Virus record (IMG/VR): IMGVR_UViG_2778261064_000023
Length of the DNA stretch: 12,643 nucleotides
Source of the DNA: a virus
Lineage: Duplodnaviria; Heunggongvirae; Uroviricota; Caudoviricetes
Direction: 5' to 3' (one strand)
Positions within the stretch are counted from its first letter, which is position 1. Each line of letters begins with the position of its first letter. The translations under genes and the position numbers were made by a program. The notes under the pieces were generated by a model that was given only the letters and a program-made list of their open reading frames with translations, had not been told where the DNA came from and ran no database searches. This document shows positions 12,341-12,643 of the stretch, one piece after another.

Positions 12341-12643
12341 ATGGTGCATGATGACAAAGCGGAAGAACTGGAAGCGAAAGGTTTATGGCGACGGGCGGCT
12401 AATCGCTGGGGTGAGTTACTGAAACAGGCGGCAAGTGATGAAGCGCGTCAGTATGTAACAGAACGACGAACGGCATGCATCCGGAAGGCAACCATAACCC
12501 GGGAACCGGAAAGAGACCTGATTTGTGCCATAAGAACCGCCGCCACAAAAACACTAACGGACATGGGGATCGACCTGAAAAAAGAAGATCCACTGCGGGG
12601 CATTCAGCACGGGCATACAAAGCAGGATAAACGCAGGAAGTAA
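12341..12643 (+). CDS. PerC-family transcriptional regulator, second paralogue
   Basis: MVHDDKAEELEAKGLWRRAANRW aligns residue-for-residue with the first paralogue (MIRDSKAEELETKGLYRRAAARW); the six-frame ORF starts at 12272, and the start at 12341 is chosen by alignment (weak RBS, so uncertain); stop is the last codon of the window. Confidence 0.7.
   Translation: MVHDDKAEELEAKGLWRRAANRWGELLKQAASDEARQYVTERRTACIRKATITREPERDLICAIRTAATKTLTDMGIDLKKEDPLRGIQHGHTKQDKRRK

Follow-up and report, generated by a model that had tools for sequence, protein, structure and literature searches.

The last gene of the 12,643-nucleotide viral record IMGVR_UViG_2778261064_000023 (the window, meaning the whole stretch analysed) encodes PerC2, a second PerC-family protein on an island that also carries PerC1. 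The window belongs to one mobile element, an EcCICFT073-like phage-inducible chromosomal island (PICI) of Escherichia coli. Weighing the evidence below, we lean towards the view that PerC2 is an intact, divergent PerC-family regulator, which travels as cargo, within a cassette of two genes, at the attR-proximal end of this probably cos-packaged island, and which is gated by the probable operator of its divergent neighbour, a predicted winged helix-turn-helix (wHTH) protein.

We looked at the identity of PerC2. The open reading frame (ORF) at 12341-12643 (+ strand, stop included) matched Pfam PF06069 with an E value of 4.5e-23 and 81.8 bits (cut-off 22.6), over profile positions 1-82 of 90. PHROG matches likewise support the family assignment. 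Both PerC copies scored above this cut-off, lie inside the att repeats and are annotated as 'PerC family transcriptional regulator' by RefSeq in NZ_CP091026, which bears out the initial annotation of two PerC-like products on one island. In a Pfam scan with E values up to 0.01, the 100-aa PerC2 matched PerC only, with no match to the ANR (AraC negative regulator)/Aar family; a 123-aa extended ORF gave in addition a sub-threshold match to DUF7302. An in-frame ATG further upstream, at 12272, reads ATA in two related loci, and this lack of conservation supports a PerC2 start at 12341 (or 12335).

The two copies had been described as sharing an identical N-terminal register, M-x-x-D-x-KAEELE-x-KGL-x-RRAA-x-RW. 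The motif is exact in both, but it is not special to the pair, being the PerC family core that is also common to PerC of enteropathogenic E. coli (EPEC) and to PchA. This core consists of D4, A7, L10-E11, K13-G14, R17-R18-A19-A20, R22-W23, D33, R36, R43, C46 and K49 in proteins of 80-105 aa. Together with M1, these columns were invariant in an alignment of 11 sequences including pMAR2 PerC, Sakai PchA and EcCICFT073 PerC, and PerC2 keeps the family-invariant residues of the characterised EPEC PerC and PchA, the comparison that the initial annotation had called for. After the N-terminus the copies diverge, as had been claimed, with 28/50 identical residues over positions 1-50 versus 12/44 over positions 51-95. 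The two proteins are 42-43% identical (BLASTP E 1e-20), and no DNA similarity was detectable between the two genes. PerC2 is 33% identical to EPEC PerC, 35% to PchA, 48% to EcCICFT073 PerC and 37% to EcCIMP1_025, the corresponding values for PerC1 being 45%, 47%, 62% and 50%. Judged by these identities, PerC2 stands further from the other family members than PerC1 does.

Between four loci, the PerC2 coding sequence differed by 3-4 synonymous versus 0-1 non-synonymous changes, and the adjacent 96-aa gene was clearly more diverged between the same loci. This substitution pattern indicates that PerC2 is under constraint. That PerC2 could be a decaying or silent passenger gene is scarcely credible, since its full-length ORF is intact in the four loci and almost invariant while its neighbours diverge, all family-invariant residues are retained, the cassette-carrying genomes listed have a PerC-family regulator annotated at the matched position, and homologues at 56-85% identity are also intact, with about 100 aa. 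The passenger idea draws on the lack of a consensus promoter, on the lack of any terminator found after PerC2 and on the 1.27 kb that separate the gene from attR (positions 18644-19930 of locus L001, which holds the island), where there is no annotated gene, no ORF above 105 aa, no family-matched ORF and no Rfam family. Conserved in strain MB06102, this stretch is pieced together from unannotated segments that are present in 672 genomes. Through this 1.27-kb arm, PerC2 would come to lie 5' of the integrase, in the same orientation, in an excised circle.

A tblastn search of 50,697 phage records with PerC2 returned only two weak matches, phi456 and Fels-1, so that the PerC2 subtype is not a common phage gene in that set. 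A PerC2-like gene with 57-60% identity was also seen outside a satellite context (locus L005, 4782-5084), next to IS66/IS3 insertion sequence elements, a serine-protease autotransporter and a PapB-type regulator. Its upstream region is unrelated to that of PerC2 and has no bearing on the operator.

To place PerC2 on the element, we used E. coli STEC383 (NZ_CP091026), which holds a copy 99.8% identical to the window. There, the island has cspD/yljB on one side and clpS on the other, and is bounded by 17-bp direct repeats AATGGTGTAGTTAATTT lying 13.95 kb apart, for a whole-island size of about 13.95 kb. The left repeat (attL) is 38 bp 5' of the integrase start, outside the window, and the right repeat (attR) is 1.27 kb past the PerC2 stop codon. 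Since the right repeat lies beyond this stop, PerC2 is within the element, and the window ends before the right end of the island. The element shows the hallmarks of Gram-negative PICIs: an integrase followed by an alpA-type gene in the same orientation, a primase/replication module, a size in the 10-15 kb range, att repeats, and no lysis or tail genes. It is collinear with EcCICFT073, the E. coli PICI that has been studied most, from the integrase through the phrog_1561 gene. The coordinates agree with the initial placement of the second copy after the packaging module and divergent from a gene without family: PerC2 is 3' of both TerS-like genes and of the cos-like repeats, and is divergent from the ORF at 11936-12226 (- strand), with 114 bp between the two start codons.

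Next, we looked at the distribution of the cassette, taken as the 810 bp (11834-12643) that start just past the PHROG 1561 stop codon, end at the PerC2 stop codon and hold the 96-aa gene, a repeat and PerC2. Among 5426 complete E. coli genomes, 48 had it, each time in the chromosome. The cassette ends tRNA-Pro/yejO islands in strains 08-00022 and GB089, where the integrase is a different one, the primase is of D5 type, capsid genes are present and PerC2 is the only PerC; in MB06102, it ends a tRNA-Pro island that carries ProQ-PerC1. Cassette islands carry either DUF927 or D5-type primases. By coordinate comparison, a PerC1-type gene shares the strand of the cassette match and lies 3.4-6.9 kb from it in at least 22 of the 48 genomes (for TUM1881 and VTB97432v, this distance was taken from the whole-window match); the PerC1-type gene is absent from some cassette-bearing islands. 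The ProQ-PerC1 stretch is far commoner than the cassette: 347 complete E. coli genomes have a match to it, which in 227 covers at least 80% of its length. EcCICFT073 has one PerC, located in the PerC1 slot, and ends after the PHROG 1561 gene without the cassette.

A local duplication is contradicted by the absence of DNA similarity between the genes and by the 43% identity of the proteins, and as far as sequence comparison goes the two copies are not a recent duplication. Since cassettes are seen both alongside a PerC1-type gene and in the absence of one, the two-PerC state arose by module shuffling and not by duplication; on this distribution it is recurrent and made by combining modules. The mosaic acquisition put forward in the initial annotation is thus supported by a PerC2 cassette found on satellites that differ in integrase, att site, primase and packaging/capsid genes. 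Its other proposal, a regulatory diversification of the two PerCs, is plausible in view of their differing transcriptional settings and diverged C-terminal halves.

The same distribution bears on a possible role of PerC2 in the satellite life cycle, for instance by activating packaging genes or by interfering with helper late transcription, the two PerCs then serving two helper types. Two helper types would match the two TerS-like genes and the two cos-like sites. Moreover, the PerC genes flank the packaging region, PerC1 ends the induced operon directly before the first cos-like copy, and PerC genes are often found in the PICIs of strains that lack the enterocyte effacement locus (LEE; PMC3378721, PMC11773190). 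We nevertheless hold this role to be rather unlikely, as the PerC2 cassette is also found on islands with quite different packaging/capsid modules, EcCICFT073 packages with one PerC and no cassette, and the half-site of the candidate operator described below is absent from the rest of the island.

We then looked at the region between the two divergent genes, where a perfect 12-bp palindrome had been reported in the shared promoter region. The palindrome, GACAGTACTGTC at 12248-12259, is indeed present between the divergent genes, but on its own it does not exceed chance (the window has four perfect 12-bp palindromes, versus 3.3 +/- 1.7 expected from Markov simulations), and it is best assigned to the 96-aa gene. 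The palindrome forms the middle of a 32-nt inverted repeat (12238-12269, 14/16 pairs), and of 300 simulated windows only 2 held an equally good one. At L017, L018, L006, L009, L021 and L020, the 32-nt repeat is found again, 6-13 nt upstream of the wHTH homologue's start codon, and the sequence further upstream is unalignable between those loci. Its half-site is CTTAWTGT. At L009, a T to A change in one arm is accompanied by an A to T change in the other, so that symmetry is kept, and at L021 both half-sites are kept and the pairing is broken. Within 385 kb of loci, the bipartite motif was found only before wHTH homologues, except for three extra copies at L020. Within the 24.6 kb of L001, the half-site occurs only at the 12238-12269 repeat. 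This fixed spacing, symmetric exchange and exclusive placement form the pattern of a protein operator, and since the motif precedes wHTH homologues without an adjacent PerC, the repeat is best assigned to the 96-aa gene and not to PerC2. These data suggest that the 32-nt repeat is probably the operator of the 96-aa protein. Such a bipartite site is longer than typical MarR boxes.

At L020, a satellite-like contig, the motif copies (4961, 5364, 5404 and 5908) are intergenic, around the wHTH homologue and the next gene and near a phage Q-antiterminator gene, and a multi-operator repressor arrangement is possible there.

The inverted repeat could instead act as an RNA hairpin in the 5' leader of the wHTH mRNA, masking its Shine-Dalgarno sequence and being unconnected with PerC2, which would be constitutive and redundant with PerC1. 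The end of the right arm, ...ACAATAAGGAG, does overlap the AAGGAG ribosome-binding site, and the inner stem at L009 pairs only via a possible G-U pair. We find this very unlikely, because both arms are conserved in sequence and not merely in pairing, L021 loses pairing yet retains both half-sites, and three of the four copies at L020 are outside any wHTH leader.

The 96-aa protein is predicted to fold as a wHTH, its model showing a three-helix bundle in which the recognition helix is followed by a beta-hairpin wing. It had no sequence match in Pfam, PHROG, PADLOC or the PDB and belongs to no named family (MarR, ArsR, PadR, etc.), and no solved structure is related by sequence to the wHTH family. 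The model thus points to a wHTH-like regulator outside any described family. Like the autoregulated repressors of the ArsR, MarR and BlaI-MecI types, the protein has a predicted wHTH fold and a palindromic candidate site at its own presumed promoter; unlike them, it has no sequence-family match and no effector or dimerisation extension. In unrelated contigs, its homologues typically close satellite-like islands on the right, as a final gene that points inwards; examples are EcCIMP1 (L017), L018, L021 and L006. A reading of the cassette as a defence cassette was dropped, PADLOC giving no defence-system match for the PerC1, PerC2, wHTH, phrog_1561 or ProQ proteins.

In the mechanism that we favour, the wHTH protein would bind the inverted repeat as a dimer and repress its own promoter. 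The repeat would also gate PerC2, since it takes up the leftmost third of the 114 bp between the divergent genes. PerC2 expression would then probably be set locally by the wHTH protein, independently of the AlpA-driven operon and of induction. PerC1, in contrast, is at the end of a long rightward operon and would be made upon island induction; its ATG overlaps the ProQ/FinO stop codon (ATGA, 7650-7653), which suggests a translational coupling to ProQ/FinO. PerC2 may act in trans as a small TPR (tetratricopeptide repeat)-like helical protein, by analogy with the relief of H-NS silencing by Pch, and its target range may differ from that of PerC1, because the C-terminal halves of the two proteins differ. 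The PerC2 model (predicted local distance difference test score, pLDDT, 74) consists of a three-helix N-terminal core plus a fourth helix, and resembles TPR-type helical hairpins and not a helix-turn-helix; by sequence, PerC2 has no relative among solved structures.

Several observations weigh against this mechanism. No sigma-70 consensus promoter was found in the wHTH-PerC2 intergenic region by a consensus scan, manual candidates being weak, so that an overlap of the repeat with a PerC2 promoter can only be inferred. Of the six loci that combine a diverged wHTH homologue with a good repeat, five lack a neighbouring PerC and one, L021, was outside the scan, and the four PerC2-cassette loci are too alike in the intergenic region to reveal PerC2-specific elements. 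Confidence in the PerC2 model is moderate, and small helical proteins match TPR folds easily. As for H-NS, base composition gives no support to reading the island as a target (GC 0.42-0.59, not AT-rich). Finally, no LEE1 effect was reported for the EcCICFT073 and EcCIEDL933 PerC homologues, and LEE1 repression was reported for EcCIMP1_025 (PMC11773190); with such inconsistent LEE1 results among PICI PerC homologues, neither the direction of the PerC2 effect nor its targets can be predicted.

A closer tie between the two cassette proteins can also be considered, in which PerC2, being TPR-like, would serve as an anti-repressor by binding the wHTH repressor (or another regulator), making a self-contained bistable module and not a classical pair of DNA-binding activator and repressor. 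This seems quite improbable, as the wHTH family is mostly found without an adjacent PerC and a helical core of 50 residues matches TPR folds without specificity. In another reading, the wHTH protein as repressor, the 32-nt operator and PerC2 as output or anti-repressor would make up a new regulatory switch at the attR end of Gram-negative satellites; we regard this as a long shot. If true, the switch would give the island a second, AlpA-independent control circuit acting on host or helper genes. In the cited PICI literature, where AlpA is the master regulator, no satellite-borne repressor is described for these islands.

The other features of the window are listed in the table below. With EcCICFT073, the island shares the integrase, AlpA-like helix-turn-helix gene, Icd/Ash region, DUF4222 gene, primase, single-stranded DNA-binding protein (SSB), PerC, a packaging region with two cos-like sites and phrog_1561. 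The size of about 14 kb and the short att repeats are those of EcCICFT073-type cos PICIs, which use Rpp or TerS redirection. It differs from EcCICFT073 by its DUF927 primase, ProQ/FinO gene and extra wHTH-PerC2 cassette, and by a DUF1441 protein and a Nu1-type TerS that replace the capsid genes and RppA. A 26-nt stretch at attR (L001 19904-19929) is identical to one upstream of the EcCICFT073 integrase (L013 9884-9909), despite different insertion sites, cspD/clpS here versus roxA/phoQ in CFT073.

Features of the window (positions count from its first nucleotide; sRNA, small RNA)
Feature	Position	Strand	Remarks
Tyrosine integrase	1..1239	+	Left island end
AlpA-like helix-turn-helix gene	1658-1867	+	
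Icd/Ash region with two small RNAs		+	Between AlpA-like gene and DUF4222 gene
IsrK (Hfq-binding sRNA) match	2732-2808		Rfam, 80 bits, above gathering score; inside Ash/Icd region
C4 antisense RNA match	2830-2917		Rfam, 75 bits, above gathering score; inside Ash/Icd region
DUF4222 gene	3609-3923	+	Overlaps primase start
DUF927 primase	3920-6064	+	
SSB	6658-7080	+	
ProQ/FinO-domain gene	7117..7653	+	Paired with PerC1; Pfam PF04352, 86.9 bits
PerC1	7650..7937	+	Last gene of long rightward operon; Pfam PF06069, 123.5 bits
cos-like repeat, copy 1	8066..8118	+	Upstream of DUF1441 TerS-like gene
DUF1441 TerS-like gene	8229-8777	+	
Hairpin, 28-nt arms, 1-nt gap	9399-9455		Between convergent DUF1441 and Nu1 transcription units
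Nu1-type TerS	9483-10067	-	
cos-like repeat, copy 2, inverted	11179..11231	-	Faces Nu1-type TerS gene
Conserved 94-aa gene, PHROG 1561	11549..11833	+	No known function; accompanies cassette; last gene of EcCICFT073
Terminator-like hairpin CTCCTCAAAATTGAGGAG and T-run	11850..11867	-	3' of wHTH gene, before convergent phrog_1561 gene
96-aa gene, predicted wHTH	11936..12226	-	Unnamed family
32-nt imperfect inverted repeat CTTATTGTGGGACAGTACTGTCATACAATAAG	12238..12269		Probable operator of 96-aa wHTH protein
PerC2	12341..12643	+	Intact 100-aa PerC-family gene; alternative start 12335

The two cos-like copies form a 53-nt inverted repeat pair, 94% complementary, that brackets the two convergent TerS-like genes, each copy being upstream of one of them (DUF1441 on the + strand, Nu1-type on the - strand). 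These repeats (ACGGGTCCTTCCGG ... CGGGGCGACGGACGCGCGG) presumably resemble lambda cosQ/cosN, which we take as a lead only. EcCICFT073 has two documented cos sites (PMC6739421). Together, the TerS-like genes and cos-like repeats suggest that the island would be induced and packaged by a helper phage. The hairpin at 9399-9455 is likely a bidirectional terminator. Just 3' of the primase gene, a cluster of direct and inverted repeats of about 21-34 nt (6172-6309; GGGACAAYAT...GCATTTTGGGAC) resembles the iteron-type replication origin described for PICIs. As the island holds both sRNA matches (IsrK, C4) and a ProQ/FinO RNA chaperone, an island-borne chaperone/sRNA pair is conceivable.

The DUF4222 gene appears to belong to the RgdR family, RgdR being a regulator of the LEE and of motility (PMC3378721). 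Its CFT073 counterpart has 99 aa with RGD at residues 20-22, the same size and RGD position as described for C1493 (PMC3378721). The window copy has PGD where the CFT073 counterpart has RGD; an R20C change marks the inactive commensal RgdR variant (PMC3378721).

PICI PerC homologues were reportedly assayed by Porter et al. 2005. Like PerC1 and PerC2, the E. coli PICI PerCs (EcCICFT073, EcCIEDL933, EcCIMP1_025) are small PerC-domain proteins on satellites with integrase, AlpA and primase; ANR family membership has been proposed for EcCIMP1_025. PerC1 occupies the same slot as EcCICFT073 PerC, after SSB, whereas PerC2 has a divergent cassette to itself at the extreme right. EPEC PerC (pMAR2 perABC) and PchA/B/C of enterohaemorrhagic E. 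coli (EHEC) share with PerC2 the Pfam family, the N-terminal core and the nature of small regulators borne on mobile elements, but their context differs, pchA being in the lambda-like prophage Sp4 and perC in the plasmid perABC operon. Activation of LEE1 by Pch, which is the PerC homologue of EHEC, works through reduced H-NS/StpA/Hha/YdgT binding and silencing (PMC4764244), and Fillol-Salom et al. state that the LEE is activated by some PICI PerCs, not all (PMC6092414).

PerC variants on E. coli PICIs have thus already been published and their role as accessory regulators discussed, and the present finding is a modest, incremental extension. In the cited PICI literature, we found no description of two PerC genes on one PICI, of the end cassette, of the wHTH family or of its operator. 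The practical gain is modest, and consists of a cassette map, a candidate operator and a candidate repressor, all directly testable. In both EPEC and EHEC, PerC/Pch regulators adjust the LEE, a type III secretion island, and contradictory effects (none, activation, repression) are on record for their PICI-borne homologues. Several of the strains in which this island is found are Shiga-toxin-producing E. coli of livestock and food origin, and the island brings together three genes of LEE-regulator families (the RgdR-like DUF4222 gene, PerC1 and PerC2) with a ProQ/FinO gene and two small RNAs. Should PerC1 and PerC2 act on different targets or at different times, satellites could have a modular means of rewiring networks of virulence or silencing.
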